DNA of 53,655 bases from Acidobacteriota bacterium (GCA_037440125.1 JBBIUU010000009.1:1-53655); one strand, 5' to 3'; shown: positions 3,477 to 21,492, numbered from the stretch's first letter. A program made the numbers and translations. Notes: generated from the letters alone by a model not told the origin.

Positions 3477-3503
3477 GGGCGGCGCGGTGGCGCCGCCCGT
3501 TTT
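3477..3503 (+). terminator. Intrinsic terminator hairpin between two convergent transcription units
   Basis: Stem gggcggcgc, loop ggtg, stem gcgccgccc (9-bp perfect), followed by gtttt. An A-run lies on the opposite strand, so it may also act on the minus-strand operon ending at 3523. Confidence 0.6.
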
Positions 3504-3522: not shown

Positions 3523-4614
3523 CTACGAGATGGCTGCGACGAGCGCGTCGGCGGGATCGGCGCCCTGCGGCAATTCGCGGAGGAAGAGCGCGTCGGGGGC
3601 GGGCTCCACGATAAGCGCGCTCGCTCCCTGGCGCTGGAGCACGACGGTGCGGGCACCGCCCTTCTCGCGCACCGTGAGTCCGGCGGCCTCCTGCACGAAC
3701 CCCAGCTGGCGAAGGCGCAACGCGGCGCCCGCCGCGGCCCAGCCCGAGGGCCCCTTTGCGGCGAGACCCTTCGCGGCGAGGCTGTCCAGCGCACCCGTGA
3801 GCGCATGCTCGTCCTGCCTCATCCGGTCCCACTCGCCCGTCCACACGGGGTGCGCGAGCCACGAGGTGTCGGGTTCAGCGAGCGACTGGCCGAGGGCCGA
3901 GAAGGGCATGGGGCCCCTGGCGCGGAGGAGCGCCGAGAGTGTCACGGCTTCGGAGGGGGAGAGCTTCAGGTCCACCGGCTCGCCCGGCGGGAGTCCCGGC
4001 GCCCCGGTGGCGGCCACCGCGCGGAGCGCGCCGTAGAGGGTCCAGTGCGCCGCGGTGACGATGCAGGCCGAAAGGACGAGGAACCAGATCGTCCAGTAGG
4101 TCACGAACCCCCAGGGCATGAGCCTGAAGAAGCCGCAGAGGGTGAAGGCGAAGAGCCAGAACCCGAGGTAGCGACCCTTGTTGCGGTAGATGAGGCCGCC
4201 GAAGCGGTCGCGCCCCACGGGGATGTTCCGCCCCACCATCACGCCGAGGACGGCGCCGAGGACCACGCCCGCGAAGAGGAATCCCACGCGGAGGAAGAGG
4301 AAGATGATGTCCGCGGCGTTGAGGAGGCCCCGGAGGTCCGTGATCTTTTGGGCGCCGAAGATGACGCGGAAGAAGGACAGCGCGAAGAGGATCGTCGTGA
4401 CGAAGAGGACCACCGTGGGCAGGAGGAGGACGGCCCGCAGGACGGGCCGCTTCCCCTGGCGGAAGACCGCGATGCGGCGGTTGATCTCGGCGAGGGTCGC
4501 GTAGAGCGCCGTGCTGTAGCAGAGCTTCACGAAGAGCATGACGACCCACACGACCGCCTTGTAGACGAAGAGGAGGGCGGCGCCGGCGGTCAGGGGGGGC
4601 ACGCTAAGCGCCAT
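3523..4614 (-). CDS. Polytopic membrane protein (about 6 hydrophobic segments) with a soluble C-terminal domain; unknown function; last gene of the operon
   Basis: 363-aa ORF with GGGAGGG upstream. Its start overlaps the preceding gene end by 11 nt. Amino-acid composition is normal. Hydrophobic helices in the first ~210 aa are followed by LSPSEAVTLSALLRARGPMPFSAL... No recognisable catalytic motif. Confidence 0.75.
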   Translation of the reverse strand: MALSVPPLTAGAALLFVYKAVVWVVMLFVKLCYSTALYATLAEINRRIAVFRQGKRPVLRAVLLLPTVVLFVTTILFALSFFRVIFGAQKITDLRGLLNAADIIFLFLRVGFLFAGVVLGAVLGVMVGRNIPVGRDRFGGLIYRNKGRYLGFWLFAFTLCGFFRLMPWGFVTYWTIWFLVLSACIVTAAHWTLYGALRAVAATGAPGLPPGEPVDLKLSPSEAVTLSALLRARGPMPFSALGQSLAEPDTSWLAHPVWTGEWDRMRQDEHALTGALDSLAAKGLAAKGPSGWAAAGAALRLRQLGFVQEAAGLTVREKGGARTVVLQRQGASALIVEPAPDALFLRELPQGADPADALVAAIS

Positions 4615-5026
4615 GGGACCCTCCCGCCATCCTGCTCGCCACCCAGGCGCGCGCCTCCTCTTCGGCGAGGGGGAAGCGCAGCCTCAGCGCCTCGGGCGAG
4701 CGCCGGCACTCCACCGCGCTGCCCTCCCTGAAGGCGAGGTGGACCACCTCCGCGCCGCCGCGGCCGAAGAGGGAGAGCGTCCAGACGCGCTCGGGCGAGG
4801 CGAGCCAGCGCAGCGCCGCGGCCACGAAGGGGTTCACGCGGCGGTCCGCCAGGAGGACCCCTCTCGCGGCGAGCTCGGAGAGGAGCTGGCCCTCGGCGGA
4901 GCTGCCCGCGGGCACGTCGCCCGCCCCCGCCACCGGGTCGCGCAGGGGCGAATCCGGCGAAGGCTCGAGGCCGAGGGTCTGGAGGAGCCAGCGGGCCTGG
5001 GTGGGGTTGAGGGTCGCCTCGATCAT
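4604..5026 (-). CDS. Hypothetical 140-aa soluble protein
   Basis: Internal ATG of track ORF 4604..5560. It forms an ATGA overlap with the stop of the upstream gene (5023-5026). Reads MIEATLNPTQARWLLQTLGLEP... The upstream part of the track ORF is Arg/Gly-rich junk overlapping a better ORF. Confidence 0.65.
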   Translation of the reverse strand: MIEATLNPTQARWLLQTLGLEPSPDSPLRDPVAGAGDVPAGSSAEGQLLSELAARGVLLADRRVNPFVAAALRWLASPERVWTLSLFGRGGAEVVHLAFREGSAVECRRSPEALRLRFPLAEEEARAWVASRMAGGSHGA

Positions 5027-5586
5027 GCGGACTCCCAGCGGCCCCAGAGGCCGAAACCGATCTTGAACGCGTGGACGGCCTTGCTCAGGACCGAGGCGTT
5101 GCAGGCCTTCAGGTCCTCGCCGAAGGTGGTGAGGTCCGGGTCGTGCGTACCGGGCTCGAGGGGGAAGGAGGGGCGCAGGCCCCCCGCGCGCCCGAGGGCC
5201 GAGAGCGCCTGCGACCACGCCTCGGGGGATCCGGCCTCGCGGGCCGCCTCCCGGTGAAGCGCCCCGAAGGCCCCGCCCGAAGCGGAAGCGAACGCCGTCT
5301 CGCGATCCTTGCCGGCGCCGACGCAACGCTCGTAGACGAAGGGCGCCGCGCCCAGCACGTGCGGCGCCGAGGGCGGCGGTGCAAGACCCGTCCCCGCCGG
5401 TCCCCGCTTCGCTCCCGAGTCCTCGTCCCTGAGGAAGAGCGTCGAGGCGACGGTGAGGAGGTAGGCGTCCTCCACCACGTCGGAAGAGGCCACGCGCTGG
5501 TACCAGGCGGGCGAGGAGCCCACGAAAGCGCGGATGCGCTCGAAGGAGCCCTCCTGCCATCCCCAGTTCCAGAACGAACGCGCCAT
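5023..5586 (-). CDS. Hypothetical 187-aa protein
   Basis: GGAGGGAG lies 6 nt upstream of the ATG, and the gene starts 16 nt after the FHA gene stop. Non-repetitive composition (MARSFWNWGWQEGSFERIRAF...). No motif recognised. Confidence 0.7.
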   Translation of the reverse strand: MARSFWNWGWQEGSFERIRAFVGSSPAWYQRVASSDVVEDAYLLTVASTLFLRDEDSGAKRGPAGTGLAPPPSAPHVLGAAPFVYERCVGAGKDRETAFASASGGAFGALHREAAREAGSPEAWSQALSALGRAGGLRPSFPLEPGTHDPDLTTFGEDLKACNASVLSKAVHAFKIGFGLWGRWESA

Positions 5587-5602
5587 GACGTCTCCCTCCG
5601 CC

Positions 5603-6934
5603 TCAGGCCTCGGGCGGGTTGTAGCACAGGGTCGTGTTGCTCACCCGGACGCGGTCCCCCGGCTGGAGCACGGTGGGGCCGTCGATCTTCTCCTCGTTCA
5701 CGAACGTGCCGTTGCTGCTCCCCATGTCGGCCACGCGCCACACGCCCGTGCTCTCCCGCGTGAACTTCACGTGGTGCCTGGAGACGCCCGGGTCGTTGAC
5801 GACGATGGCGTTGTCCCCCTGGCGGCCCAGCGAGAGGCCGTCCACGAGGGGGAAGGTCTGTCCGGCGAGGGCGCCCGTCTCCACGACGAGGCGCTGGATG
5901 ACCGCCGTGGGGCCGTCGAGCATGACCGTCGCCTCGGTACCCACCTCGGGGCCTGCTGCGGCCTTGGGCAGCTCGGGCGGAGGCCCGAAGACGATCTTGA
6001 GGAGCTCGTCCAGATCTCCCGCGAGCAGGGTCGAGAGGGCCGCGTCGCCGCCGCTCATGGACAGGAGGAAGAGGTCGAACACGGATCGGGCGAGGAGGAG
6101 CACGTCGTGCCCGTAGCCGCCCCGCACGGGTGCCGTGACGGAGAGAGCGGCTCGCGCGCTCGCGTTCCGGAACCCCGCCTCGAGGAAGGTCCCCGCGGGG
6201 GTCAGCTCGCAGACGACGCGGTTCGCGGCCGTGCCCACGCGCTCGAGGAGGCCCGCCTTCTCCAGCGCCAGGAGCGCCGGGCGCGGGTCCTTCGCGACGG
6301 CGAGCTCGCCCACGGCGAGCGGCAGGAGCTTGGCGACGAAAGGCAGCGTCCAGCGGAAGTCCTCGACGGCGGCCTCGCCCAGACGCGCCTGGACGTCCTC
6401 CGGGGCGAAGAGCGCCACGGGCTCCTTGTGGTCGAGCAGAGAGATGAGGCGGGCGCGACGGAGCTGGTCGAGGACCGCGAGGAGGGCGAGGACCTCGGGC
6501 GTCGAGAGCTTGACGGAGATACGGTCGGGCCTGAGGGCGTCGTCCGCGGCGAGGGCGTTGGCCACGAGGAAGCGCAGCTCCGGTTCGGAGCGGAGGCTGA
6601 CGCGCCGAAGGTCCCCCGAGCGCGCCAGCGAGACCCACGCACCGCCCATGTCGGGGTGCCACGCGAGGAGGCAGCGGCTCACGTGCTCGTCCGCCACGAC
6701 GCTGTGGAACTGCACCACCTTGCGGGGGTCGGCCAGCGCCCGCAGGAAGCGTTCCGCGAGGGCCTTGAAGGTCGGATCGAGGGCCTGGAAGGCCTTGACG
6801 GCGGCCTCCGCCTCGGGGCCCGCGGGGAGCTTGTCGGGGAGCGAGCCGAGGCCCTGGGCGTGGACGCCGAAGCCGGCGGCCACCGCGGCCATCTCCTTCT
6901 CGTTCAGGATCCACTCACCTTGTTCGACCTGCAT
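5603..6934 (-). CDS. FHA domain protein with a ~340-aa N-terminal domain of unknown function
   Basis: 443-aa ORF. The C-terminal segment LGRQGDNAIVVNDPGVSRHHVKF...VADMGSSNGTFVNEEKI...GDRVRV matches the FHA signature (GR..., SR.H, S.NGT.vN). GAGGTGAGG lies upstream of the ATG. Confidence 0.85.
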   Translation of the reverse strand: MQVEQGEWILNEKEMAAVAAGFGVHAQGLGSLPDKLPAGPEAEAAVKAFQALDPTFKALAERFLRALADPRKVVQFHSVVADEHVSRCLLAWHPDMGGAWVSLARSGDLRRVSLRSEPELRFLVANALAADDALRPDRISVKLSTPEVLALLAVLDQLRRARLISLLDHKEPVALFAPEDVQARLGEAAVEDFRWTLPFVAKLLPLAVGELAVAKDPRPALLALEKAGLLERVGTAANRVVCELTPAGTFLEAGFRNASARAALSVTAPVRGGYGHDVLLLARSVFDLFLLSMSGGDAALSTLLAGDLDELLKIVFGPPPELPKAAAGPEVGTEATVMLDGPTAVIQRLVVETGALAGQTFPLVDGLSLGRQGDNAIVVNDPGVSRHHVKFTRESTGVWRVADMGSSNGTFVNEEKIDGPTVLQPGDRVRVSNTTLCYNPPEA

Positions 6935-6953
6935 GCCTCACCTCTGGCTTGCG

Positions 6954-9900
6954 CTACTCCGGTTCGGGCGTGACGGGCTCGTGGGTGCTCGCGTAGTTGT
7001 TCACACTACCCCGGCCCTGGGCGCAGAACTTGGAGGGGTCGGGGTTTCCGTGGGCGTCCACGTAGCCGTACTTCTTCAGCACGTCGTTCATCTTGCTCGG
7101 GTCGCTGTAGATCTCGTTGGCGGCCTGGGTCAGCCGCTGATCCCCGAGGGACTCGTTCACCGTGTTGGCGATCTTCTCGCTGCGGGTCACCGCCTTGGAG
7201 ATGTAGAGCGGGTCGTTGGGGTGGCCCTCCACGCCCTTGACCTGCTGCCCCATGACCTCGGCCACCTCCTTGGGAGGTATGGCGGTGGGGTCGCGGCCCG
7301 AGATGTCCGCGCCCTGGTAGTTGGCTTTGTTGAGCTCGTTCTGATCCACCACGCTCTGGCCCGAGACCCTGTTCGACCCCGAGACGTAGCCGTCGCCGTC
7401 GGTGCGATACCTCGTGCCCTCACCCTGGCTCGCCTGGCGGGAGGACGTGAAGCCGGAGGCGTAGGAGTCGCCCTTGCCCGAGCACGCGCCGATGCGGTCG
7501 TAAGAGCCGTAACCCACGTTCTTGGCGGCGTCCGCGGGGTTGGAGCCTCCGCTGTTGCCGAAGCCGCGGTTCTGGAGCTCGGCGGAGACGTTGCCCTCGT
7601 GGGAGGCCCGAAACTTCTGGCAGAGCTCGTCGTAGGCCTGCTCGCGGGTCATGCCCCGGTCCGCCGCGTAGTTCTTGAGGTCGCCCTCGTTGAACGTGGG
7701 GATGAGCGTGCGGTCCGCGTCGGTCCCGGCGCGAGCCGTCGGCCCCCGGGACATGGGGCCCCGAGCCGAGGAGCCGCTGTCGGCGACGATGACCTCGTCC
7801 ACGCGGACGCCCGTCTCCGACGGGAACCGGTTGACGGTGCTCACGGTGCCGTCGTGCACGGCGCCGTTGACCTGGGCCTGCAGGAGGGTGTTCAGCTTCT
7901 TGGCCTCGTCGCCCGAGATGTAGCCCTTCATCTGCATGTCGCTGAGGTTCTTGCCGCCGCCGTCCCGGTAGATCCCCGCGAGGACGTCGGGGTCTCCCGT
8001 GGCGATGGCCCGGCGGGCCTGCTGTTGGGCCGCCCACTCGGGCGTGCCGATGAGGGGGCTCTTCATGGCCGAGCCCGCTCCCTCGGTGGCGCCCTGGGTC
8101 AGGCCCTTCGGCAGCACGAGCCCCTCCTGTCCCGTGAGGATGTCCCCCGTGCGCTGCAGCCCGCTCTTGACGGAGCCCCCGAGCTCGCCGACGGTCTTCT
8201 TCCACGCGGCCGGGTCGAAGGCGTCGGTCACGCCCTTCACGCCGCCCGTGACGGTGGACTTGAGCCCGTTCCAGCCGCCCTTCGCGGCGCCTTTGAGGAT
8301 GTTCTCGCCGGCCATCTCGGCCTGGGCCATGCCCTTGATGGCCGACCCGCCCGTCTTGAGCGCCCCGCCGATGAGGGCCCCGCCGATCTCTTGCTTGATG
8401 GTCTCCTTGACCCCTTCCCACGTGGCCTCGAGGCCGTTGGCGCCCTTGTCGATGGCGTCCTTGGTCTTGTACATGGCGCCCGTGGGCGTGAAGATCCACT
8501 CGGACTGCCCCGCGGTCAGCATGCCGATGCCGACCCGCCCAAGGAGGCCGGGCCAAGACATCTTCCCGTCGCTCGTCTGGCACGTGGAGATGTTGCGCCC
8601 CGTCTCGTTCAGCGCCTGTTTCATGGAGTCGCCGTCGGTGTACCAGGGCTTCTCGGGAGGCGGGAGCTGGTCGGATGTGGTCCCGTCGATCCGGTGGCCG
8701 ATGGCGTCCCGAATCTGCTTGATCATGGCGGGGTCCAGCTTCTCGCCGTTGAGGAACTTGTTGATCTGGTCGCCCACGCGGCCGTACATGTCGCCCTTCG
8801 TGCCGTGGGCGTCCGGGTCCACCATGCCGCGATCCCAGGCCTCCTTCTGGAGCTTCTGGAGGTAATCGAGCTCGGCCTTGCTCTGGCGCATCTTGTCGCC
8901 CGCCTCGAGGAACTCCTTGCCGGGAGAGATGGTGCCCCGGTCGCGGGCGGTGTAGTCGAAGTCGCTCCCCTCCTTCTGGAGCTGGCCGTGGAGCTCGCCG
9001 AGGCGCCCGTTGAGCTGGTTGAGGCGCGTCTGCTGGTCGGTGGTGTCGAGGCCCGCCTGCTGGGCGCCCCGCATGACGGCCTCGAGGTGGGCCTTCTCCT
9101 CGGCTGCCGCCTTGAGGTCCTCCTGGCGGTCTTTGATCCACTGGTCCTTGTAGGCCTTGGCTTCGTTGGCGGCGGCCTCATCGGCCTCCCGCTTCGACTG
9201 CATGGCGTCGGCCTGGGCCTCCGCCGAGGAGGCCTCGTCCTCCTTGGACTTGATGTAGTCGTCGTACTGCTGCTTGAGGTTCTTGTAGCCGGGGTCGGAC
9301 TTGTCCGCCGAGGACTCCGAATCCTCCCACTGCTTCTTGTACTGGTCCGCCTCCGCGCGAGCCTTCTGCGCCGCCTCGCGGGCGGCCCTCTCATCGGGGG
9401 TCTCGCCGGAGGGGCCCGGACCGCCGGGTCCCGGTCCCGGCCCGCCGGGGGTCTGGCCGTTGGAGGGGAGGGGCGGCGGGTCGCCGGGTCCCGCGGGCGG
9501 CGGGGGCGTGGCGGCCGCCACGACGCCGATGGGCCCGACGGCTCCGGCATCGCCGACGCCGCCGAGCATGTTCTGGTCGAGGTACCCGACGTCCATCTTG
9601 AAGCAACCGACGTCCGCCGTATGGCTCGGGTGGAGGGCCACCCGGATGGGGTTGTACTCGGCCCACATGTGGCCGTGCATGACCCCTGCGCCCACGGCGG
9701 AACCCATGATGCCTCCCGCCGCGGCGGCCGCGAGGGCGCCGAAGCCCTGTCCCATGAAGGGGCCCACGTCCGCCGGTCCGAGGCCCGAGGGCAGCAGGCC
9801 CTGGCTGCGCGCCTGCCAGTCGCGGATGAGCTGGTCCCGCCAGCGCTGACGCTCCGCCTGGGCGGCGTACATGGCCCGGTCGTAGTCGAGGATCACGTCG

Positions 9901-11678
9901 CGCATGGGGTCGCGCCTCGGGCGGTGGCGCCCGCCGCCCGTTCCTTCGGACTGCGGTGCGGCCTGAGGCGCTTCGGCCACCGGCCCCGGGGCCTGCTGGG
10001 GGCCGGCGTGCCCGAGGTTCGGATTGGCGGGGCCGACGGGCGGTGAGATAGGAACGCCCAGCGCGGATTGGAGCTGGGAGACCTTACCGTTGGAGGACCC
10101 GAGCGCCGACCGCGCGGCGTTGAGACGGTCCGCCGCCGCGTTGCGCTGCTGGGCCGCGGCCTGGAACTCACGTTGCGCCTGAGCGCGCGCCTGGCGGGCC
10201 TGCTCGAGGCGGGCGGCCTCTTCCCGGGCTTTCTCTTGAGACGCGGCCGCGTTCCGCCGCGCCTCCTCGGCCTCGGCCTCCTTGGCGCGGATCTGCTCCT
10301 GGGCTTGCTCCTGTTTCCTCCGGGCCGCTTCGGCTTTCGCCTCCGCGTCCCGGTAAATTTTGAGGGTCTCTTCGTTCTTCTTGGACTGCTCCTCGGCCTC
10401 GCGCTCGAGCTTCGCGTGCTCCGCCTTAGCCTTCGCCAGGTCTTCGCGGGCGAAGTCACGTTTCGCTTCCTCGAGCCGGCGCGCCGAGTCGTTCTGAGCC
10501 AGGGCCTTCTTCGCGGCTTCGATGCGCTCGGGGGTGAGAGGCTTCCCGTCGGCGTCCACGCCCGTGTCGAGCGCGCGCTGGATCTCCTCGCGGTCCCTCT
10601 CAAGCTTGGCGGAGACCTTCTCCGAGGCCTTGATGTCCGACTGGAGCGTTTCCTCCTGCTTCTGGACGGAGGCTGCCTGATCCTTGAGCTGTTCCTCCCG
10701 ATAGCTGCCCTGCCGGAGGTCCGCATCGGCCCGATCGCGGAACCCGTCGAACTTGGCCGCCTCTTTCCCGGCCCGGTCCGCGTCCTCGGCGGTCCGGGCC
10801 ACTTGCTCGCCGATGGTGGCGGCTTGCCGGTTGTACTTCTCGGTGTCGGCGTTGGCGCTCTGGACGCCGGCCGCCGCGCCCCGCTCGTCGCCTTGCGCCA
10901 TCTGGACGTCCGCCGCCTTCTCGGCCACGGCTTGGTCGGCCTGCTCGAAGCGCCCCGAGGCGTTCCGCTCGTTCTGGGCCGCGCCCTGCTGCTCCGAGAG
11001 CGCCTGGCTCAGCTGGCGCTTCAGTGCCTCCTTGTTGGGCGGGCCGCCGTCGTGCATGACCTTCGCCCGCCCCGCTTGGAAGATCCGGGAGGCGATGCCG
11101 TAGGCGATGCGCGAGCCGAGGCCCGGCAGGAGGGCGTAGAGCGGCAGCGTGATGAAGTCCATGCGGGCGTAGGCGCCCCAGGTGAGGAGCGGGTGCGACT
11201 TGTTGAAGAGGTGGAACAGGTTCAGGTTCGAATCCTGGGGGAAGAGCCAGTAAGTGGCCGTGGTGAGGACGTCCCCCACCGCGAAGGCCAGGGTCATGAG
11301 GAGGGCCAGGATGGGGGAGAAGCACGAGGCCATGGGGAGGATCTGCGCTACGTAATTCGCCTCACCCAGGTGGTTCCATCGCTCGATCTTGGCCCCCGCC
11401 AGGAACATGAGGAGCAGCAGCGAAAGGAAGGAGAACCAGAAGAGGCCTCCCCCCAGCTTCTTCTTCATCCCCATGAGGAACCCGATCCCCGTGAGGTCGA
11501 GGAAGAGGGAGGCGAGGCAGCCCGGTCCCTTGGAGGGTGGCGCCTGCCGTGGCGAGGGGCGTTGCGCCTGCCGCTGGGGCACCTGGGCGCGGGCCTGCGC
11601 GGGGACCGCGGGGCGCTGCTGCGCGGGCTTGGCGGCGGGGCGGCCCGGGGGGCGCCCCTTGGGCGGCTGGGCGCTCAC
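6954..11678 (-). CDS. Giant (1,574 aa from the GTG) membrane-anchored coiled-coil protein; unknown function
   Basis: Track ORF 6954..12017. The start is placed at GTG 11676-11678, which forms a GTGA overlap with the upstream stop. An alternative ATG is at 11474. High GC3 and normal composition. Contains a Pro/Gln/Arg-rich N-terminus, four hydrophobic helices, long Ala/Glu/Lys/Arg/Gln heptad-like regions, Pro/Gly linkers, a Gly/Lys-rich region and a ~360-aa C-terminal region. Confidence 0.85.
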   Translation of the reverse strand: MSAQPPKGRPPGRPAAKPAQQRPAVPAQARAQVPQRQAQRPSPRQAPPSKGPGCLASLFLDLTGIGFLMGMKKKLGGGLFWFSFLSLLLLMFLAGAKIERWNHLGEANYVAQILPMASCFSPILALLMTLAFAVGDVLTTATYWLFPQDSNLNLFHLFNKSHPLLTWGAYARMDFITLPLYALLPGLGSRIAYGIASRIFQAGRAKVMHDGGPPNKEALKRQLSQALSEQQGAAQNERNASGRFEQADQAVAEKAADVQMAQGDERGAAAGVQSANADTEKYNRQAATIGEQVARTAEDADRAGKEAAKFDGFRDRADADLRQGSYREEQLKDQAASVQKQEETLQSDIKASEKVSAKLERDREEIQRALDTGVDADGKPLTPERIEAAKKALAQNDSARRLEEAKRDFAREDLAKAKAEHAKLEREAEEQSKKNEETLKIYRDAEAKAEAARRKQEQAQEQIRAKEAEAEEARRNAAASQEKAREEAARLEQARQARAQAQREFQAAAQQRNAAADRLNAARSALGSSNGKVSQLQSALGVPISPPVGPANPNLGHAGPQQAPGPVAEAPQAAPQSEGTGGGRHRPRRDPMRDVILDYDRAMYAAQAERQRWRDQLIRDWQARSQGLLPSGLGPADVGPFMGQGFGALAAAAAGGIMGSAVGAGVMHGHMWAEYNPIRVALHPSHTADVGCFKMDVGYLDQNMLGGVGDAGAVGPIGVVAAATPPPPAGPGDPPPLPSNGQTPGGPGPGPGGPGPSGETPDERAAREAAQKARAEADQYKKQWEDSESSADKSDPGYKNLKQQYDDYIKSKEDEASSAEAQADAMQSKREADEAAANEAKAYKDQWIKDRQEDLKAAAEEKAHLEAVMRGAQQAGLDTTDQQTRLNQLNGRLGELHGQLQKEGSDFDYTARDRGTISPGKEFLEAGDKMRQSKAELDYLQKLQKEAWDRGMVDPDAHGTKGDMYGRVGDQINKFLNGEKLDPAMIKQIRDAIGHRIDGTTSDQLPPPEKPWYTDGDSMKQALNETGRNISTCQTSDGKMSWPGLLGRVGIGMLTAGQSEWIFTPTGAMYKTKDAIDKGANGLEATWEGVKETIKQEIGGALIGGALKTGGSAIKGMAQAEMAGENILKGAAKGGWNGLKSTVTGGVKGVTDAFDPAAWKKTVGELGGSVKSGLQRTGDILTGQEGLVLPKGLTQGATEGAGSAMKSPLIGTPEWAAQQQARRAIATGDPDVLAGIYRDGGGKNLSDMQMKGYISGDEAKKLNTLLQAQVNGAVHDGTVSTVNRFPSETGVRVDEVIVADSGSSARGPMSRGPTARAGTDADRTLIPTFNEGDLKNYAADRGMTREQAYDELCQKFRASHEGNVSAELQNRGFGNSGGSNPADAAKNVGYGSYDRIGACSGKGDSYASGFTSSRQASQGEGTRYRTDGDGYVSGSNRVSGQSVVDQNELNKANYQGADISGRDPTAIPPKEVAEVMGQQVKGVEGHPNDPLYISKAVTRSEKIANTVNESLGDQRLTQAANEIYSDPSKMNDVLKKYGYVDAHGNPDPSKFCAQGRGSVNNYASTHEPVTPEPE

Positions 11679-13189
11679 GGGGCCTCCCACATCACCCACA
11701 GGCGGGCGTGGTCCCACGGCTGGGTGGAACCGCCGCGTTCGCTCGGCACGGCCTGGACGAACGCGAGGGCGCTGCCCGCGGCGGTGACGGCGAAGATGTC
11801 TTCGGTCGCGGCGGCGGGTGTGGCGGTGCCGCTCCGGAAGAGCCTGCGGGCCGCCTCCCGCGCCGGCTGGCCGCTCGCCCAGGCAGTCCCGGCGGGGCTG
11901 ACGGAGAGCGCCGCGAGGTTGGCGCGCACGGTGACCAGGTCGGAGGTCCATCGGCCCGGGCCCTCGAAGCGCACGAGGCGGGAGAAGCCGCCTGCCTCCG
12001 CCATCCAGGCCCAGCACGCCCCATCCGGGAGCGCCTGGAACCCCGAGACGGCAATCCCCTCAGGGGACCAGCGCGTTTCGGCCGTCCCGTCGAAGGAGAA
12101 GAGGCCCGGCGAGCCGTGGGGCGCCTGCGCCAGGTAGAAGACGCCGCTTTCCGAGGGCTGGGCCTTGAACCTGCGAAGGGGCCGCGGACCGAGCGGTGTC
12201 AGCGCGACCGCGCGGCCGCCGAGGGCGCATTCCACGGGGACCTCGGCGGGGAGGACCCTGACGTTCTCGCTGTCCCGTTCCATCCGGGCATAGTCGAATC
12301 CCCGGGTGAAGAGCGGTGCATCCCATTCCTCCGACCAGCCGCAGAGCCTGGGGAACTGGCCGTCGGCCAACGGCTCGAGCGCCCAGGCCCTGGTCCCACG
12401 GTGCAGCTCCCAGAGGCCGATGCCCGAGCCTTCCACGAACGCGACGCGGCTCCCGTCGCGAGAGAAGCAGGGTGCGAGGATCTCGTTTCCGGACGAAGCC
12501 AGGAATGAGACCTCTCGGCCTCCTGCGTCGAATAGGGCGAGCCCCGCGGGCCGGGCGCCCGATGCGGGGAGGGGAAGGGTAAAGCGTTTACCGTCGGGTG
12601 ACCACGCCGCCATGGACGCCTGGACGTCGAGCGCGTAAGGCGTGAGTCGCCTGGGCGCGGCCCATCCGCGGCGCAGGAGGAAGGCGGCCAGGCCGTCGCG
12701 GAGGTCCGTGACGCCGTCGCCGTCGGTGTCCGGTCCGCGCCGGGCGAAGAGGATCGACGAGCCGTCCGGCGAGAGGCACGGCGAGAGGTCGCAGGCGAAC
12801 CCCTTGGCCACCCTCTCGGCGCCGGGGAGCGCGGTCGGCTCGCCGGGGGACGTGCCCGGGGATGCGGCGAGCAACGCCAGGCCGAGGCATGCAGCCCCGG
12901 GAAGCACCCTCCTGACTCCCACGAGGAGGACGAGCGCCGCCAGGGCGAGCCCGCCGCCCCCCGCAGCGCCGATGAGCCAGAGGCCGGTGTCCGCGCCCTC
13001 GTGCCGCCTCAGGAACTCCATGTTCCCGCTGTGGCAGGCGATGCACGGCTGGGAGGGCAGCGTAGCGACGTCGGCGCCGTGGCAGGAGAGGCAGGCGCCC
13101 GACCCGAGCTCCGGCCGGGGTGTCGCGACGGCGGCCGTGCCCATCAGCAGGACCGCCGACGCGAGGAGGAGCGCGCGGCCGGCCCTCAC
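11675..13189 (-). CDS. Di-haem cytochrome c motif protein fused to a TolB-like (PD40/WD40-like) beta-propeller region
   Basis: GTG start at 13187-13189 forms a GTGA overlap with the upstream stop. Signal-like RAGRALLLASAVLLMGTAAVA. Two CxxCH motifs (CLSCH, CIACH). Two hydrophobic segments. Repeated SPDGSSILFA, SPDGKRFTL and SRDGSRVAFVE motifs are typical of PD40 repeats. Confidence 0.8.
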   Translation of the reverse strand: MRAGRALLLASAVLLMGTAAVATPRPELGSGACLSCHGADVATLPSQPCIACHSGNMEFLRRHEGADTGLWLIGAAGGGGLALAALVLLVGVRRVLPGAACLGLALLAASPGTSPGEPTALPGAERVAKGFACDLSPCLSPDGSSILFARRGPDTDGDGVTDLRDGLAAFLLRRGWAAPRRLTPYALDVQASMAAWSPDGKRFTLPLPASGARPAGLALFDAGGREVSFLASSGNEILAPCFSRDGSRVAFVEGSGIGLWELHRGTRAWALEPLADGQFPRLCGWSEEWDAPLFTRGFDYARMERDSENVRVLPAEVPVECALGGRAVALTPLGPRPLRRFKAQPSESGVFYLAQAPHGSPGLFSFDGTAETRWSPEGIAVSGFQALPDGACWAWMAEAGGFSRLVRFEGPGRWTSDLVTVRANLAALSVSPAGTAWASGQPAREAARRLFRSGTATPAAATEDIFAVTAAGSALAFVQAVPSERGGSTQPWDHARLWVMWEAP

Positions 13190-13734
13190 GGGGAACCCTC
13201 CAACGCGCGCTCCCACAGGGCTTGGCACGAGGGGCAGAGGGAGGCGGGACGGTCTTCCACGCCCATGGGGTGGGGGCGCTCGCTGAGGGCGCAGTCCCAC
13301 CGGTCGCAGTGCTCGAGACCGAACGCGTGGGCGAGCTCGTGGCGAAGGACGCCCTGGGCACCCTCGATGTCGAGCCCGTGGCAGGAAGCGAGTGCAAGAC
13401 CCGTCCCCGCGCGGGAGATTCCGCGGATGGGGATTCCGTGTCCGTCCGTGAGGGGGCGGTGCGTCACGCCCAGGAGCGGGCGCGCCGGTTGCCGGGCCTC
13501 GAGGTAGTCCAGCAGGAGCAGCGCGTCGGAAGAGCCCACGGACCAGGGTTCCACGGAGAGCATGTCGACGGGTAGCGGCTGGAAGGTTCGAGAGAGGGGC
13601 AGGCCCGGAGGCAGGAACCCATCGGCGAGGACGCCGACGTTGATGGCGCTCCGGAAAGCGGATGCCCCCTTCTGTGCCAATGCCCCCTCCCCGAGGTGCA
13701 CCTCAACCTTAGGGGACGCGGATTCAGGTGTCAA
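13186..13734 (-). CDS. Archaemetzincin-like zinc metalloprotease (peptidase M54-like)
   Basis: HELAHAFGLEHCDRWDC...(16)...CPSC closely follows the archaemetzincin signature HExxHxxGx3Cx4C...CxxC. The track start is TTG at 13734, 16 nt after the pilin stop. An in-frame GTG 33 nt downstream is an alternative start. Confidence 0.75.
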   Translation of the reverse strand: MTPESASPKVEVHLGEGALAQKGASAFRSAINVGVLADGFLPPGLPLSRTFQPLPVDMLSVEPWSVGSSDALLLLDYLEARQPARPLLGVTHRPLTDGHGIPIRGISRAGTGLALASCHGLDIEGAQGVLRHELAHAFGLEHCDRWDCALSERPHPMGVEDRPASLCPSCQALWERALEGSP

Positions 13735-13750
13735 GCATCGTGACCGGGAG

Positions 13751-14248
13751 TCAGTTGCAGCGTCTCTGCTTGCCTTCGGGGCGCACCATGAAGAAGTCGT
13801 TCACCCAGACGATGTCGTTCTCCAGGCACACCGTCGAATGGGGCGTGTCGGCCAGGATGCCGGGGAAGTCGAGCGAATCGGCGGCGTTGCCCTTGCCCAG
13901 CGAGCGGACCGCGAAGTCCTGCTGATTGTCGGCCACGGCGTACTGGTACGGCAGGCCCCAGGGATCCGGGTTCGGGACCGCCTTGATGTAGTACGGGGCG
14001 AGGTCCTGCATGCCCGCGATCGCGTCGGTCCCCGTGTAGGTCGTGCTCGACGCCGGGAACTGGTTCAGGTCCGCGAAGCTGGAGTTGCACGCCATGGCCA
14101 TCCCTCGGACCTCGCCCATGGCTCGCTTCTGTTTGGCGCGCTGGATGGCGGTCAGGAGGTTCGGTATGGCGATGGCCGCGATGATGCCGATGATGGCGAC
14201 GACGATGAGGAGTTCGATGAGGGTAAAGCCCCGCTCCCTGGATCCCAT
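13751..14248 (-). CDS. Prepilin-type N-terminal cleavage/methylation domain protein (type IV pilin or pseudopilin-like)
   Basis: MGSRERG/FTLIELLIVVAIIGIIAAIAIPNLL is a canonical class III signal peptide plus hydrophobic helix. GGAGGG lies upstream of the ATG. Two C-terminal Cys residues are present. Confidence 0.9.
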   Translation of the reverse strand: MGSRERGFTLIELLIVVAIIGIIAAIAIPNLLTAIQRAKQKRAMGEVRGMAMACNSSFADLNQFPASSTTYTGTDAIAGMQDLAPYYIKAVPNPDPWGLPYQYAVADNQQDFAVRSLGKGNAADSLDFPGILADTPHSTVCLENDIVWVNDFFMVRPEGKQRRCN

Positions 14249-14283
14249 GGACCCTCCGACCGACAGGCTTTAAGGGATGGCTG

Positions 14284-14300
14284 TAGCAAGAGCGATACCA
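14284..14300 (-). promoter_or_regulatory. Candidate sigma54 (-24/-12) promoter upstream of the pilin-led operon
   Basis: The minus strand reads TGGTATCGCTCTTGCTA. The GG and GC dinucleotides have exactly the consensus spacing of TGGCACG-N4-TTGC. The element lies ~36 nt upstream of the ATG at 14248. Confidence 0.45.
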
Positions 14301-14396: not shown

Positions 14397-15515
14397 TCAG
14401 GGGCTGCGGAGGGTGAACTTCCGGATTTCGGAGGGTCTGAAGAGCCTCATGGGTGGCCCCCAGGTGCCCGTACCCCGGCAGACCCAGAGCGTCATGGCCC
14501 CGAGGGTGTAGGGCCCCTCGAGCCTGGGGTAGGCGAAGGCGACGAGGTAGCCGAAGGGCCAGATCTGGCCTCCGTGCGTGTGCCCCGAGAGCATGAGGCC
14601 GGTCCCGAGCGCGGCGGCCTTCTCCCCCTGGAGGGGCGAGTGGCACAGGAACACGGTGGCACCCGCCGGCCTTCCGTTCAGGGCTCGCGCCACGGGGTCC
14701 CCGTCGAGGTTGAACTGGCGTCGCGCCGAGAGGTCGTCCACGCCCGCCATCACGAGCCCCGGCGCCACCTCCTGGGCGCGGTCGCGGAGGACCGTGAACC
14801 CGGCTCTCTCCATGAGGGCCACACACCGCTCCACGCCGGCGTAGAACTCGTGGTTGCCCGTCACGGCCCAGACGCCGCGGGGCGCCTTCAGGGTCTGGAG
14901 CGTGGGTAGGAGGCGCTCCACTTCAGCCGCGTCGCCGTCCACCAGGTCCCCCGTCACCGCCACGAGGTCGGGCTTCAGCGCCTCGACCTGGGCGATGCGC
15001 GCCTCGAGCCAGCGGCGTCCGAGGAGGCTTCCGAGGTGGAGGTCGGAGATCTGGACGAGGACCGTGCCGTCGAGCTCTTTGGGCAGGCCGACCAGCTTCA
15101 CGTCCGCCTCGCGCACCACGGGAGCGCGGAGCCCTTGGACGAGCGCGACGACGGCGAAGAGGGCCGCCGCGCCGAGCGCCGCGAGCCGCACGGTGGGCGC
15201 CGCCTTCTGGAGGAGCCAGCCGAAGCCGGTGACCACGTCGGCGATGAAGAGGCACGCGAGGGCGAGGAAGAGGACGCCCATCCACGACGCGCCGACGGCC
15301 TCGAGGAGCTTTCCCATGCGGGGGAGCCCCTGGTGCGCCACGATCCGGCCCAGCGGGTAGAGGACCCACAGGAGCACGAAGGCGCCCACGAGGACGCGCC
15401 GCCATAGCGCGGGCGGCGCGAGCGGCCAGAGGCGCCAGAGCACGTAGGCGTGCATGCCCGTCCAGACGGTGAGGACGACGGTGAGGAAGAGGACGAATCG
15501 CCAGGCGGACGCCAT
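14397..15515 (-). CDS. Membrane-anchored metallophosphoesterase (calcineurin-like, YkuE-type)
   Basis: Internal ATG (MASAWRFVLFL...) with GAGGAG upstream. Several N-terminal TM helices are followed by the motifs VQISDLHLG, VTGDLVDG, GNHEFY and SGHTHGGQ. Confidence 0.85.
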   Translation of the reverse strand: MASAWRFVLFLTVVLTVWTGMHAYVLWRLWPLAPPALWRRVLVGAFVLLWVLYPLGRIVAHQGLPRMGKLLEAVGASWMGVLFLALACLFIADVVTGFGWLLQKAAPTVRLAALGAAALFAVVALVQGLRAPVVREADVKLVGLPKELDGTVLVQISDLHLGSLLGRRWLEARIAQVEALKPDLVAVTGDLVDGDAAEVERLLPTLQTLKAPRGVWAVTGNHEFYAGVERCVALMERAGFTVLRDRAQEVAPGLVMAGVDDLSARRQFNLDGDPVARALNGRPAGATVFLCHSPLQGEKAAALGTGLMLSGHTHGGQIWPFGYLVAFAYPRLEGPYTLGAMTLWVCRGTGTWGPPMRLFRPSEIRKFTLRSP

Positions 15516-15615
15516 GGGGCTCCTCGGAGGCGCGGTCTTGGGACCGCGCAAGGTGGCATAGTATATCGAGATTGCGGTCGCACCTCCCGGGGTGGGGCGC
15601 AGGAGGAGGTATCTC

Positions 15616-16083
15616 ATGGAAGACTGGACCGGTGCCCCGTTGAGCCAGCCCCCCGACCGCATCCTTCCCAGCGTCTGCGCCGTGGCGCTCGACGACGGGG
15701 GACGGATCCTCCTCCACCGGCGCGCCGATAACGGCTTCTGGGGTCTGCCCGGAGGCAAAGTGGATCCGGGGGAGTCGGTGTCTGCGGCCGTGGTGAGGGA
15801 GGTCTCCGAGGAGACCGGCCTGCGGGTCTCCGTCGTCCGGCTCACGGGCGTCTACTCGGACCCGGCGGTGCGCGTCGTGGCCGCCTACCCGGACGGGCGC
15901 GTGATCCACTACGTGAACCTCACGTTCCTGTGCCGCGTCGAGGGGGGCGAGCCGGCCGTGTCCGGCGAGGGCCTGGAGGTGGGGTTCTTCGAGCCCGACC
16001 GCCTGCCCGAGCCCTTCCTCCTCGGACACCGGATCCGCCTCGGGGACGCCCGGTCCCTCGGGGTCGAGCCCTTCGTGAGGTAA
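15616..16083 (+). CDS. NUDIX hydrolase
   Basis: AGGAGGAGG lies 6 nt upstream of the ATG at 15616. Nudix box GLPGGKVDPGESVSAAVVREVSEETGL. Confidence 0.85.
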   Translation: MEDWTGAPLSQPPDRILPSVCAVALDDGGRILLHRRADNGFWGLPGGKVDPGESVSAAVVREVSEETGLRVSVVRLTGVYSDPAVRVVAAYPDGRVIHYVNLTFLCRVEGGEPAVSGEGLEVGFFEPDRLPEPFLLGHRIRLGDARSLGVEPFVR

Positions 16084-19357: not shown

Positions 19358-20644
19358 TCAGTTGACGGCTACCCCGACGCGGTCCCAGAAGTCGCGGTAG
19401 CGGTCCCGGGCCTCGGCCTGCCCGCGGGCGCGGGCGCCGTCGAGCACCTCGAACTTCGACCGCAGGAGGTCCACGAGGTCCTCATCGAGGGCGCGAGAGG
19501 AGGTCATCCGCTCGAGGATGGCCATGCTCCCCTCGCGGGACATTCCCTTCCGGTACGGCCGGTCCTCCGTGAGCGCCGTGAACACGTCCGACACGGCGAC
19601 GATGCGGCTGCCCAGGGAGAGCTCTTCGCCCACGCGGTGGAAGGGGTAGCCTCTGCCGTCGAGACGCTCGTGGTGGAAGGCCGCCCACTGCGTGAGGTCC
19701 TCCCCCATCCCCGAGGCGCGCAGCAGGCGGTAGGTATGGTAGCTGTGGCTCTTGATGAGGTTGAACTGCCTCGGGGTCAAGGTAGAGGGCTTCTCGAGGA
19801 CCTCCACCGGCACCGCGAGCTTGCCGAGGTCGTGGAGGTGCCCCGCCACCTTGAGCCCGCCGCAGTCCTCCGCGGAGAGCCCCACGAGCTTCCCCATGGC
19901 GGGCGCCACCGATCCGACGCCGCTCGTGTGGGTCGCGGTGAAGCGGCTCCTGAAGTCCACGATCTGGCAGAAGAGGGCGGCGAAGGCGTCGATGCCCTCG
20001 GCGTCCAGCGGCACCGGCTCCAGGAAGTCCCCGAATCCACCCTCCTCGGCGAGGGACCCGATCCTCAGCCAGAAGCTCTCCTTCGAGGCCGCCTCCAGGA
20101 ACCCCTCCACGAGCATGGGGACGAACATCTTGCCGCGCTGCTCGGAGATCCGGCGCCGGATCTCCGGGGCCTGCCCCAGGACCTCGCGGCCGTCCTTGAC
20201 GAGCACCGCCACGCGGTCCGCGAGGTGGAGGAGGTGGCTCGCGAGGGGGACCTCGTGCCCCCGGTGGCTGTGGCCCCGGCCGTCCCACCACTCCACGTGG
20301 TGGAAACGGATGAGGTCCGCTGCGTCCGAAAGCGGCGCGAACCCCCTCAGCAGCTGGTAGCCCACCTCGCCGTGCCAGTCTCTTCCCGGCTCGGCGGTCT
20401 CGGACTCCTCGAATTGGAGCGTCTCGATCCGCTCCGCGAGGGAGAGGGCCCCCACGTCGTGCATCATGGCCGCCAGGATGACCGTCCTGCGCTCGGCGGG
20501 CTTGAGCGCCAGCGCCGCCGCAATCTGCGCGGCGATGAAGGCGGTCCGGCGGTGGTGTCCGTGGAGCGCCGGATAGACGAGGTCCACCGCGGTGGAGAGC
20601 CCGCTGATCATGTCCAGGTGCGTCACCTTCGCCATCGGAGCCAT
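19358..20644 (-). CDS. Tandem HD / HD-GYP domain phosphohydrolase
   Basis: First module: HDVG ... HHVEWWDGRGHSH. Second module: HLHDLGKLAVP ... HHERLDGRGYPF (canonical HD-GYP). Confidence 0.85.
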   Translation of the reverse strand: MAPMAKVTHLDMISGLSTAVDLVYPALHGHHRRTAFIAAQIAAALALKPAERRTVILAAMMHDVGALSLAERIETLQFEESETAEPGRDWHGEVGYQLLRGFAPLSDAADLIRFHHVEWWDGRGHSHRGHEVPLASHLLHLADRVAVLVKDGREVLGQAPEIRRRISEQRGKMFVPMLVEGFLEAASKESFWLRIGSLAEEGGFGDFLEPVPLDAEGIDAFAALFCQIVDFRSRFTATHTSGVGSVAPAMGKLVGLSAEDCGGLKVAGHLHDLGKLAVPVEVLEKPSTLTPRQFNLIKSHSYHTYRLLRASGMGEDLTQWAAFHHERLDGRGYPFHRVGEELSLGSRIVAVSDVFTALTEDRPYRKGMSREGSMAILERMTSSRALDEDLVDLLRSKFEVLDGARARGQAEARDRYRDFWDRVGVAVN

Positions 20645-20845
20645 CTGGTCCCTCGCGGGTCTGTCGAAAACTTAAGGACCGGCACCCTCAAAGTCAACGA
20701 ACCCCCAGGCGCGTCGGCGGCTCGGGGCAACTGGCGAACGGGGGCTAACTCCTGTACAATCTCGGGCGTCGAGCGCCGCGCCTGGCCTCGGCTCGGCGGG
20801 GACGGGCCCCGTCATTCCCCGCACAGGCGTTCCCAGGAGACCCCC

Positions 20846-21466
20846 ATGAAATCGTTCGCCGCCGCCCTCTGCCTCGCCCTCGCCGCATGCTCTCTCTGGG
20901 GTCAGGACAGCCGGGTGCCGTCCTCCGCGACACAGTCCGCCTCCAAACCCGCCAAGAAGCAGGTGGTGGTGGTCGTCATCGACATGGCCAAGATCGTGAA
21001 GGACTCCAACCTCTCCAAGAGCGTCCAGGCCGAGTTCCAGGCCTGGGTCGAGCAGGTCAAGGCCGCGCTCCAGCCCAGGGGCGAGACGATCCGCGCGAAG
21101 CAGGAGGCCCTGAAGAACCAGGGCGACAAGCTCACGCCCGACCAGAAGCAGACGCGCGAGAAGGAGATCGGCGTCCTCCAGAGCGAGCTCACCCAGCTCC
21201 AGCAGAAGGTCCAGCAGGACTACCAGACGCGCCAGCAGATGGCCGAGGACCGCCTCCGCAAGGCCTTCGACCCGCTGGTGGACGCCCTCGCCAAGGAGAA
21301 CGGCTGGGACATCATCCTCACGAAGTCGGACCGCATGGTCTGGAACAGCGACGCCGTGGACCAGACCGATTACGTCCTCGCGCGCTTCAACGCCGCGACG
21401 GCCTCTCAGCTCGCGGCCCCCGCGGCCGCGCCCGCCCCCGCGCCGGCTCCCGCGCGCGGCAACTGA
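20846..21466 (+). CDS. OmpH/Skp family periplasmic chaperone
   Basis: AGGAGA upstream of the ATG. Signal peptide MKSFAAALCLALAACSLWG. Gln/Lys/Glu-rich helical body with the D...I.....Y. pattern typical of Skp. Ala/Pro-rich tail. Confidence 0.75.
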   Translation: MKSFAAALCLALAACSLWGQDSRVPSSATQSASKPAKKQVVVVVIDMAKIVKDSNLSKSVQAEFQAWVEQVKAALQPRGETIRAKQEALKNQGDKLTPDQKQTREKEIGVLQSELTQLQQKVQQDYQTRQQMAEDRLRKAFDPLVDALAKENGWDIILTKSDRMVWNSDAVDQTDYVLARFNAATASQLAAPAAAPAPAPAPARGN

Positions 21467-21492
21467 TCCGCGCGGACCTCTCCGGAACGACG

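Follow-up and report, generated by a model that had tools for sequence, protein, structure and literature searches.

The window analysed here, a 53,655-nucleotide (nt) stretch of DNA from an Acidobacteriota bacterium (GCA_037440125.1 JBBIUU010000009.1:1-53655), carries a tightly packed run of eight genes around a gene for a giant membrane protein; seven of the eight form a conserved cassette. We labelled the eight open reading frames (ORFs), all on the minus strand, g1 to g8, with g1 furthest upstream and g8 last, and found all of them at the lengths given in a preliminary description of this DNA. The upstream-most gene, g1 (13751..14248), encodes a GspG/type IV-pilin-like prepilin of 165 amino acids (aa) and is an accessory or neighbouring gene. 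It is followed by genes for an archaemetzincin-like (M54-like) Zn-metalloprotease (g2, 13186..13680; first read as 13186-13734), an exported, membrane-anchored di-haem/PD40 protein (g3, 11675..13189), the 1,574-aa giant membrane protein (g4, 6954..11678), an FHA protein (g5, 5603-6934), a 187-aa soluble protein (g6, 5023..5586), a 140-aa EspG-like protein (g7, 4604..5026) and a 363-aa membrane protein (g8, 3523..4614). From g2 to g8 the ORF coordinates gave the same junctions as the preliminary description: overlaps of 4 nt at 13186-13189 (g2/g3), 11675-11678 (g3/g4) and 5023-5026 (g6/g7), an 11-nt overlap at 4604-4614 (g7/g8), and gaps of 19 nt at 6935-6953 (g4/g5) and 16 nt at 5587-5602 (g5/g6). 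The G+C content was ~70% throughout the window, without a compositional break across the region, and that of the cassette equalled that of its flanks. G+C at third codon positions (GC3) was 0.87-0.94 in the ORFs that passed the GC3 frame filter (g1, g4, g5, g6 and g8); g2, g3 and g7 did not pass it. No mobile-element genes adjoined the cassette, either among its neighbours in the window or on homologous contigs.

Homologues of the giant were sought by a word-indexed search of 5.8 billion proteins. Eleven full- or near-full-length homologues with 38-65% identity were obtained, all but one of them ~1,500 aa long. The synteny sample consisted of the contigs of these homologues, GTDB species representatives, in which GHMWAEY from a His/Cys motif of g4 (see below) worked as a search pattern, and JGI metagenomes, and gene order was read from a table of tblastn and hidden Markov model (HMM) matches. 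Every named host was an Acidobacteriota metagenome-assembled genome, one of them labelled Thermoanaerobaculia. The order g2-g3-g4-g5-g6-g7-g8 was found, in the same orientation, in every locus long enough to hold all seven genes, which gave at least nine colinear loci besides the window (L001/L002, L003, L006/L009, L007/L011, L008, L010, L013, L018 and L019); loci L005, L012, L014 and L020 were cut by contig ends. The synteny check that the preliminary description had proposed thus showed the homologues in other genomes to be strictly syntenic. In alignments, the mean column identity of the cassette proteins was 48-68%, and the proteins other than the giant were 33-74% identical to those of the window across loci. 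At least three flanking contexts were seen: that of the window (CNNM...M32 peptidase), one in which the cassette stands between an HD-domain gene and a 225-aa gene plus dihydroorotate-dehydrogenase-type genes, and Fic...TonB_C. With HMMs of the cassette proteins, g2, g3, g6, g7 and g8 were not found on non-acidobacterial loci, that is, outside the acidobacterial cassette. We conclude that g2-g8 form a seven-gene operon that is conserved and stable in the chromosomes of one acidobacterial lineage. The operon is vertically inherited and lineage-specific, belongs to Thermoanaerobaculia-type Acidobacteriota and has its own sigma70-type promoter.

Some loci had features of their own. At L004:10001-18800 there were frame changes in the giant gene (near 12669-12709) and g5 was split, as in a decaying cassette or a long-read assembly error. 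The clade without the pilin gene had a conserved 225-aa gene 3' of g8 on the same strand (L003:14239-14916, L007:15049-15726 and L008:12925-13602). In a pooled scan, a single protein gave a DUF4190 match (E 3e-5); it was probably the 225-aa protein or a 121-aa protein of L001.

The pilin gene had a narrower distribution. We found g1 only in L005, L006/L009, L012 and L013, which form the sub-clade of the window, and it was absent from most cassette loci. Upstream of it in the window lies a minus-strand gene (14397..15845) for a protein with ~4 transmembrane (TM) helices and a calcineurin-like phosphoesterase (Metallophos) domain, and this gene adjoins the pilin gene only in the same sub-clade. 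Because these loci also share the flanks of the window, the adjacency of both genes could reflect common descent, and the membership of g1 and of the Metallophos gene in the system is unproven. The Metallophos protein could be a phosphodiesterase or phosphatase tied to the system, or a mere neighbour.

The two transcription signals upstream of the cassette separate the pilin gene from the other seven. A sigma70-like promoter lies at 13706..13734 on the minus strand (-35 TTGACA at 13734-13729, N17, -10 TAAGGT at 13711-13706). The pattern TTGAC[AC]-N17-TAnnnT occurred 5' of the g2 orthologue in 13 of 15 loci, pilin-bearing and pilin-less alike; in the window and the pilin-bearing loci it falls between the pilin gene and g2. 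A generic promoter scan had missed this element because its -10 box is weak. The preliminary description had started g2 at TTG 13734 and so counted a 16-nt gap between the pilin and protease genes. Since TTGACA-N17-TAAGGT is conserved across loci, that TTG belongs to the -35 hexamer and is not a start codon, and the gap was wrong. TTG 13680, preceded by GGGGAGGGGG, is more likely to be the start; it yields a protein of 164 aa (orthologues: 154-161 aa) and a g1-g2 spacer of 70 nt. Automated annotation of this family would over-extend the N-terminus by 18 codons.

A sigma54-type -24/-12 element (TGGTAT-N5-TTGC) lies at 14286..14300 on the minus strand, 49 nt 5' of the pseudopilin ATG. In the window it is a two-mismatch match, and by count such matches are not significant (19 in the window versus 39.8 expected). 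The element is nevertheless supported, because the exact consensus TGGCAC-N5-TTGC stands at the same place in four orthologous loci (L005, L006, L012 and L013), 43-54 nt from the start of the pilin gene, where the surrounding sequence is otherwise unconserved. From this pattern, a sigma54 promoter of the pilin gene is credible. The preliminary description had proposed an eight-gene sigma54 operon; the eight genes and the element are real, but the element drives the pilin gene and not necessarily the operon, and the conserved unit is the seven genes g2-g8 behind the sigma70-type promoter. Read-through from the pilin promoter into g2-g8 is possible, since no terminator was seen in the 70-nt spacer between g1 and g2.

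At the other end, a GC-rich hairpin (GGGCGGCGC-CACC-GCGCCGCCC, 3477..3498) lies between the end of the operon and the convergent M32 peptidase gene. Its folding energy was -24.8 kcal/mol on the minus (operon) strand (z = -3.9) and -27.8 kcal/mol on the plus strand. The strong hairpin of the terminator previously placed at 3477-3503 is thus real, but its UUUU tail is present on the plus strand only and serves the convergent M32 carboxypeptidase gene, so that the operon transcript may terminate inefficiently or need a termination factor. A terminator scan also gave six weak terminator-like sites between 6974 and 12115, against 5.1 expected by chance, and none of them was comparable to this hairpin.

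The domains of g4 were mapped from conservation, hydropathy and the positions of Pro and Gly; no Pfam family was found in any of 12 giants scanned individually. All coordinates that follow are on the minus strand. A basic, Pro-rich tail (aa 1-50) is followed by a polytopic membrane domain (aa 50-215, 11034..11531; motifs HLGE and PLLTWGAYARMDF) with a column identity of 0.74-0.85, and by a helical region rich in Ala, Glu, Lys, Arg and Gln (aa 216-560, 9999..11033). Next come a basic helix, a Gly/Ala-rich TM segment (aa 646-667) and the His/Cys motif HGHMWAEYNPIR..HPSHTADVGC.KMDVGYLD (together aa 585-725, 9504..9926), a Pro/Gly linker (aa 726-760) and a second charged helical region (aa 760-900, 8979..9401). 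The C-terminal half holds the D3 domain (aa 900-1100; TGxDxDGxxSW.G...R...G..TGG.SE) with a Gly-rich stretch (aa 1100-1205; D3 and stretch together 8064..8981), and the NT domain (aa 1206-1574, 6957..8063) with the motifs GDSGSS (aa 1299-1304) and TDADRT (aa 1319-1324). The preliminary description had called g4 a coiled-coil giant with four TM helices. Its long helical regions and three to four N-terminal hydrophobic helices are there, but one more helix lies at aa 646-667, and the globular C-terminal half, which ends in a conserved and probably enzymatic domain, had gone unrecognized.

From aa 215 to aa 540, g4 has a single conserved Pro/Gly cluster, at aa 373-383. It lies within the sequence TGVDxDGRPLTPER (aa 372-385), in which T372, G373, G378, R379, P380 and P383 are invariant. 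This single conserved helix-breaking cluster suggests that aa 216-560 probably form an antiparallel hairpin with a conserved tip and arms of ~155 residues (~216-371 and 386-545). Heptad periodicity was weak in the helical region, and a profile scan gave an SMC-type coiled-coil match with E=0.026. The His/Cys motif (aa 668-701, window 9576-9675) is near-invariant, stands directly after the mid TM segment and looks like a juxtamembrane metal site. In the mapping of the hits described below, the His/Cys motif, like the membrane domain and the first helical region, occurred in no proteins other than those of the acidobacterial family. A TolQ/MotA-like channel was considered for the N-terminal membrane domain and rejected; there was no match, and the domain is too small.

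The C-terminal half of g4 belongs to a wider family. When 1.84 billion cluster representatives were searched exhaustively with an HMM of aa 900-1574, D3 and/or NT were detected in 246 representatives at E ≤ 1e-3 and in 109 at E ≤ 1e-30. The two domains were nearly always C-terminal, in proteins of 900-2,100 aa with unrelated N-termini. The named members came from Clostridiales/Eubacteriales, Omnitrophota, Acidimicrobiales and Phycisphaerae, and all were annotated 'hypothetical protein'. Hydrophobic segments preceded the module in 76 of the 84 relatives with a sizeable N-terminal region. The commonest class (21/84) had a signal-like N-terminus and one TM helix just before D3, often with IPGPEN..ALAGI..PGLIA, and BACON/Ig-type N-terminal domains occurred in some relatives. 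Most relatives are polytopic or type-I membrane proteins and not secreted. No PDB relative of D3 was found by profile search. D3 and NT are an unnamed domain pair for which Pfam has no model and the PDB no closely related structure.

The NT domain carries the clearest indication of function. Among 26 sequences of 26-57% identity, the invariant residues were the Gly of GDSGSS, both Asp of TDADRT and a further Asp, Gln, Lys and Arg. The motif VGDSGSS-x11-TDADRT fits the Pol-beta pattern hG[GS]-x(9-13)-Dh[DE]h. A first AlphaFold2 (AF2) model of aa 900-1574, built from 9 sequences, had a pLDDT of 57, with the D3 part at low confidence, and gave no meaningful Foldseek matches, although cGAS appeared even in this low-quality search. 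An AF2 model of NT alone reached a pLDDT of 92 and a pTM of 0.90. It contains, in order, a long helix, a strand, the G-S loop, a strand starting with D-x-D, helices, further strands and a helical C-terminal half, with the motif laid out as strand E94-101, loop and strand E124-130. Foldseek against the PDB gave as the best match the N-domain of the GlnE adenylyltransferase (1v4a; E=0.014, probability 0.85, TM-score 0.28), and human cGAS chains recurred among the lower matches (E 1-3). Foldseek of the NT model against viral structures (BFVD) and an NT scan of viral contigs gave nothing, and a word-index search with the NT profile gave only 8 short proteins in uninformative contexts. Two other origins of GDSGSS were rejected: a trypsin-like GDSGG serine protease, as the NT model is mostly helical, and an SGNH/GDSL hydrolase, as there is no invariant His.

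NT resembles GlnE, DrrA(SidM)-type and cGAS/OAS-type enzymes in having a strand, a G-S loop, a D-x-D strand and then a helical domain, with invariant G, D and D and a conserved Lys and Arg in the helical part. It differs from them in lacking detectable sequence similarity, in a global TM-score of only 0.28, in having Arg-Thr in place of a hydrophobic residue after DxD, in that a third catalytic carboxylate was not located, and in being fused to a giant membrane protein behind D3, which those enzymes do not have. On the strength of the motif and the predicted fold, we regard it as rather probable that NT is a nucleotidyltransferase of the Pol-beta type.

The nearest relatives of the giant share with it a partner protein. 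The first 330 aa of g5 form a cytoplasmic partner domain, g5N (5945..6934, minus strand), with the motifs DFRW and LSTP..L..LA, and aa 345-443 (5606..5902, minus strand) form an FHA domain with the canonical GR...SRxH...NGT residues. The FHA domain assigned earlier to the C-terminus of g5 held up well (PF00498, 68.6 bits; GR...SRHH...NGT); a PDB profile search matched it to GarA/OdhI-type structures at E 1e-17, and a 48-bit match to the Yop-YscD_cpl model simply reflects the FHA fold. We found a g5N homologue directly 3' of a D3-NT gene in L021, L022, L023, L024 and L030, the last a spore-former contig, at E 1e-68 to 1e-84. These homologues ended in one or two zinc ribbons where g5 has FHA. 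Profile search gave 43 g5N clusters in all, with FHA, Zn_Ribbon_1, GYF or nothing at the C-terminus, and these interchangeable domains are of cytoplasmic type. No consistent Pfam or NCBIfam family was found for g5N in a pooled scan of g5N, g6 and g8 orthologues, and PDB profiles matched only the FHA part of g5. As judged from gene neighbourhoods and profiles, D3-NT and g5N are an older two-gene core that extends well beyond Acidobacteria and is elaborated by the cassette.

The clostridial-type D3-NT/g5N pairs (L021:553-17274 and L030:2181-12152) stood in same-strand operons of ~10 genes, rich in small Zn_Ribbon_1/DUF7489/DUF4870 membrane proteins, which make up a second undescribed operon type on the same core.

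Most of the other proteins are built from ordinary parts. The pilin-like, archaemetzincin-like and di-haem/PD40 assignments made previously were borne out. g1 has the prepilin motif G|FTLIELLIV and scored above the cut-offs of the prepilin N_methyl and T2SSG models (PF07963, 37.4 bits; PF08334, 30.1 bits), with TIGR01710 at 68.9, below its cut-off of 88.85. g2 has no signal peptide and carries the signature HExxHxxGxxHC-x4-C...CxxC, invariant in 10 orthologues; PF07998 (23.6 versus a cut-off of 24.4) and NF033823 (31.7 versus 145) aligned only with its last ~45 residues, which hold the C-terminal motif. The signal-peptide-like N-terminus of g3 is followed by two CxxCH motifs, hydrophobic segments (aa 72-113) and a PD40/TolB-like propeller with DTDGDG motifs (PD40, 31.9 bits; TIGR02800 TolB equivalog, 24.2 versus a cut-off of 343). 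Its residues C33xxCH37, C49xxCH53 and M57 are invariant in 8 orthologues and mark it as a c-type-cytochrome-like protein with putative haem attachment. The prepilin, M54-like protease, CxxCH, PD40 and FHA parts all have known relatives, and the mix of cytoplasmic and periplasmic modules noted before is real.

Three further proteins had been counted as unknowns. This is still correct for g6 and g8. The 187-aa g6 has a near-invariant C-terminus (HAFKIGFGLWGRWE), occurs in the cassette only and gave no Pfam, NCBIfam or PDB match; g8, with ~five TM helices and a soluble C-terminal domain by hydropathy and alignment, gave no database family. The 140-aa g7, however, marginally passed the EspG threshold (PF14011, 28.6 versus 27 bits, over profile positions 8-111 of 245). 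Its orthologues carry precomputed EspG hits, and its family profile matched EspG1/EspG3 chains in the PDB at E 0.07-1. A paralogous origin of g5N, g7 and the g8 C-terminal domain was rejected, as profile-profile tests gave only a faint signal between g7 and the g8 C-domain (hhalign, E=0.006 over 79 columns), on which we did not rely.

Profile, structure, defence-system and literature searches placed the giant and its neighbours nowhere, in agreement with the earlier view that the combination could not be assigned to any described machine. Scans of the window ORFs likewise gave no secretion ATPase, secretin, PilC/M-Q, Ser/Thr kinase or nuclease, as first reported. PADLOC-DB 2.0 had no component model that matched any of nine proteins, and no description of the cassette was found in the searchable literature. 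For the giant, g5N, g6, g8 and the combination as a whole, Pfam, NCBIfam, PADLOC, the PDB and the searchable literature offered no match, and because these searches were negative we call the system undescribed.

The explanation that we favour, still tentatively and at somewhat less than even odds, is a sensor/effector complex that spans the membrane and has nucleotidyl transfer in the cytoplasm as its output. The giant would sit in the inner membrane, its extracytoplasmic part being either the helical hairpin with its conserved tip or the polytopic domain. Together with the anchored di-haem/PD40 protein g3, this part would sense the envelope or redox state, and in the clade of the window the pseudopilin might contribute. 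The signal would cross the membrane to a cytoplasmic D3-NT module, which would use a nucleoside triphosphate (NTP) either to modify a target protein by nucleotidylylation or to produce a nucleotide signal, with or under g5N. FHA on the acidobacterial g5N would tie the module to Ser/Thr phosphorylation, and the cytoplasmic protease g2, the EspG-like g7, g6 and the membrane protein g8 would be lineage-specific assembly, processing or regulatory parts. We infer catalysis, the membrane topology, what is sensed and every protein-protein contact in this scheme; operon conservation, the promoters, the domain family, the g5N pairing, the invariant motif and the high-confidence fold model are observed. 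The arrangement resembles receptor-type enzymes (nucleotide cyclases, GGDEF proteins and Ser/Thr kinases), since the relatives have a variable N-terminus, extracytoplasmic or polytopic, one TM helix and a conserved cytoplasmic catalytic-type module. It differs from them in that a D3-NT output is found in none of those families and needs, or co-occurs with, a dedicated partner.

The topology of g4 bears directly on a sensor/effector complex. The basic stretches are at the N-terminus, at KRK 72-74, at GRAKIMK 203-209 and at RHRKRP before the mid TM segment, after which the sequence is neutral or acidic. Read by charge bias, this gives a cytoplasmic N-terminus, four helices, a cytoplasmic first helical region and a C-terminal half outside the cytoplasm. 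NTPs are absent there, so that such a topology would undermine an enzymatic model. The opposite topology is backed by the relatives in which a signal peptide and ecto-domain are followed by a TM helix and D3-NT, by the need for NTP, and by the cytoplasmic-type partner g5N, which has no signal peptide. We therefore lean, with a modest degree of confidence, towards a cytoplasmic D3-NT and a periplasmic helical hairpin over the charge-bias topology.

Besides the charge bias, several observations weigh against a sensor/effector complex with nucleotidyl transfer as its output. A few BACON/Ig relatives (P0061, P0041, P0060 and P0070) lack a hydrophobic segment before D3; if they are exported, D3-NT would act outside the cytoplasm, in conflict with the nucleotidyltransferase reading. 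No Foldseek match of NT in the PDB reached E < 0.001, and the link to nucleotidyltransferases consists of a short motif and weak structural matches. NT gave no Pfam match (26 NT domains scanned) and no PDB match by profile, and hhalign of NT with both halves of E. coli GlnE gave a probability below 1% with the motifs unaligned. With structural matches weak and sequence methods finding nothing, NT is held to be a probable but not an established nucleotidyltransferase, and its activity is a prediction only. The FHA domain is absent from the g5 orthologue of L001, which has no extra domain in its place, and the cassette encodes no kinase to feed FHA. Distant D3-NT genes (L015, L016, L017, L026 and L027) have no g5N neighbour, so that the pairing typifies the sub-family nearest to the giant and not the whole family. 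Finally, the mechanism names neither a sensor ligand nor a target.

The best of the other explanations, though an unlikely one, is a conflict module for abortive infection or antagonism, in which NT would be a toxic nucleotidyltransferase, either AbiEii/MenT-like or comparable to the toxin end of a polymorphic toxin, with D3 and the Gly-rich stretch serving membrane insertion or translocation and g5N acting as the immunity protein or antitoxin. The strict gene order of toxin then partner in the nearest relatives would fit, as would the constant C-terminal module behind varying N-termini that include BACON/Ig-type surface domains, and the Gly-rich amphipathic stretches in D3 and the linker. The EspG family is sometimes grouped with immunity-type folds. 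AbiE and MenAT likewise pair a nucleotidyltransferase-like protein with an adjacent partner that possibly has a winged-helix element, and g5N gave a faint match to the AbiEi_4 winged helix-turn-helix (E=0.21 over 25 residues only). However, this match is negligible, the gene order is reversed relative to AbiE/MenAT, no AbiEii (DUF1814) match was obtained in the profile scans, and NT is membrane-tethered in proteins of 1,000-2,000 aa. None of nine proteins matched a PADLOC model, and no known toxin-delivery domain was among the Pfam matches. The giant is conserved end to end without C-terminal polymorphism, most of its relatives are polytopic or type-I membrane proteins and not secreted, and a scan of viral contigs for NT came up empty. 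The cassette keeps a stable place in the chromosome, has flanks shared within clades and a host-like G+C, and g5N is large (~320 aa) with signalling-type fusions.

An improbable alternative is that the giant is a structural envelope element, a TolA-like tether whose helical hairpin spans the periplasm and docks on the PD40 protein and possibly the pseudopilin, with the cytoplasmic parts only regulating assembly. As in Tol-Pal, the genes for an anchored Ala/Lys/Glu-rich helical protein and for a periplasmic PD40 propeller protein are neighbours. In composition the helical region is like TolA domain II, its distal tip is conserved, the SMC-type coiled-coil match points the same way, the propeller has a weak TolB-model match, and a TonB_C protein is encoded 3' of the cassette in L001. 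Against a tether, no homologues of TolQ, TolR, ExbB, ExbD or Pal were found in profile scans, and TolA domain III is also missing. The TolB equivalog match was 24 versus a cut-off of 343; the g3 propeller has two haem motifs and its own anchor, and the giant has an enzyme-like globular C-terminal half. Heptad periodicity is weak, the invariant catalytic-type motif of NT would be left unexplained, and D3-NT/g5N pairs occur in monoderm Clostridia, which have no need to span a periplasm.

A divergent secretion or pilus machine with the giant as channel or substrate, either type VII-like (EspG-like protein, FHA) or like a type II system or type IV pilus (pseudopilin), is less probable again. Its attractions are that g7 passes the EspG Pfam threshold, that FHA domains occur on EssC and SctD/YscD, and that the gene directly upstream encodes a prepilin and has a sigma54 promoter. 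The small cytoplasmic g7 is also encoded beside a protein with a long helical hairpin, as the ESX chaperone EspG (PF14011) is with PE/PPE. But g7 has 140 aa versus ~280 aa for EspG, covers half of the family model and gives no significant match to the solved EspG1/EspG3 structures. Scans of the eight proteins and of 20 neighbouring ORFs of the window gave no AAA/FtsK (EccC/EssC) match, and no WXG100 Pfam match was found among the cassette proteins, although small ORFs were not searched exhaustively; EccB/D/E and MycP are likewise absent from the cassette, and the host is a diderm acidobacterium. Nor was there a GspE/PilB or other ATPase, a GspF/PilC platform, a secretin or an assembly protein among the ORFs scanned, and most cassette loci lack the pseudopilin. 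Last, a chance same-strand run or ORF artefacts in 70% G+C DNA, which does yield many long spurious ORFs, are effectively refuted by the synteny kept at 38-65% (giant) and 33-74% (other proteins) identity, and are further contradicted by the invariant functional motifs, the conserved promoter, the overlapping start and stop codons and the GC3 of 0.87-0.94 in g1, g4, g5, g6 and g8.

Returning to a sensor/effector complex with nucleotidyl transfer, a bolder form of it is a speculative reading that we consider doubtful: D3-NT and g5N would define signalling machines of a new class, embedded in the membrane, working by nucleotidyl transfer and distributed across phyla. Among these the cassette would be the most elaborate, with a periplasm-spanning stalk with a conserved tip, a haem/propeller co-sensor and, in the cytoplasm, an enzyme head that is gated by the partner with FHA and by a metalloprotease of its own. 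If true, information on the envelope would here cross the inner membrane in a new way. If NT is an active nucleotidyltransferase, these proteins would make up a new family of nucleotidyl-transfer enzymes that are tethered to the membrane and have their own partner protein; such an enzyme could be a receptor-type AMPylase or a second-messenger synthase. D3 and NT occur in ~250 clusters of Acidobacteriota, Clostridia, Omnitrophota, Acidimicrobiales and Planctomycetota, and the NT model is confident enough for mutagenesis. The acidobacterial operon offers a parts list (haem/propeller, metzincin, EspG-like and FHA proteins) that hints at how the core may be connected with the envelope and with Ser/Thr phosphorylation. 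No phenotype is attached to the system, and as its hosts are uncultured, any impact depends on heterologous work. For annotation, the gain is immediate: a start codon has been corrected to a promoter box, and a sigma54 pilin gene has been set apart from a sigma70 operon.

Without a link to the cassette, the window also has other signalling-type genes, at 19358-23394 and 37129-39351, among them those for an HD-GYP-like HD_5 protein, a radical SAM/SPASM enzyme and a HAMP-MCP chemoreceptor.

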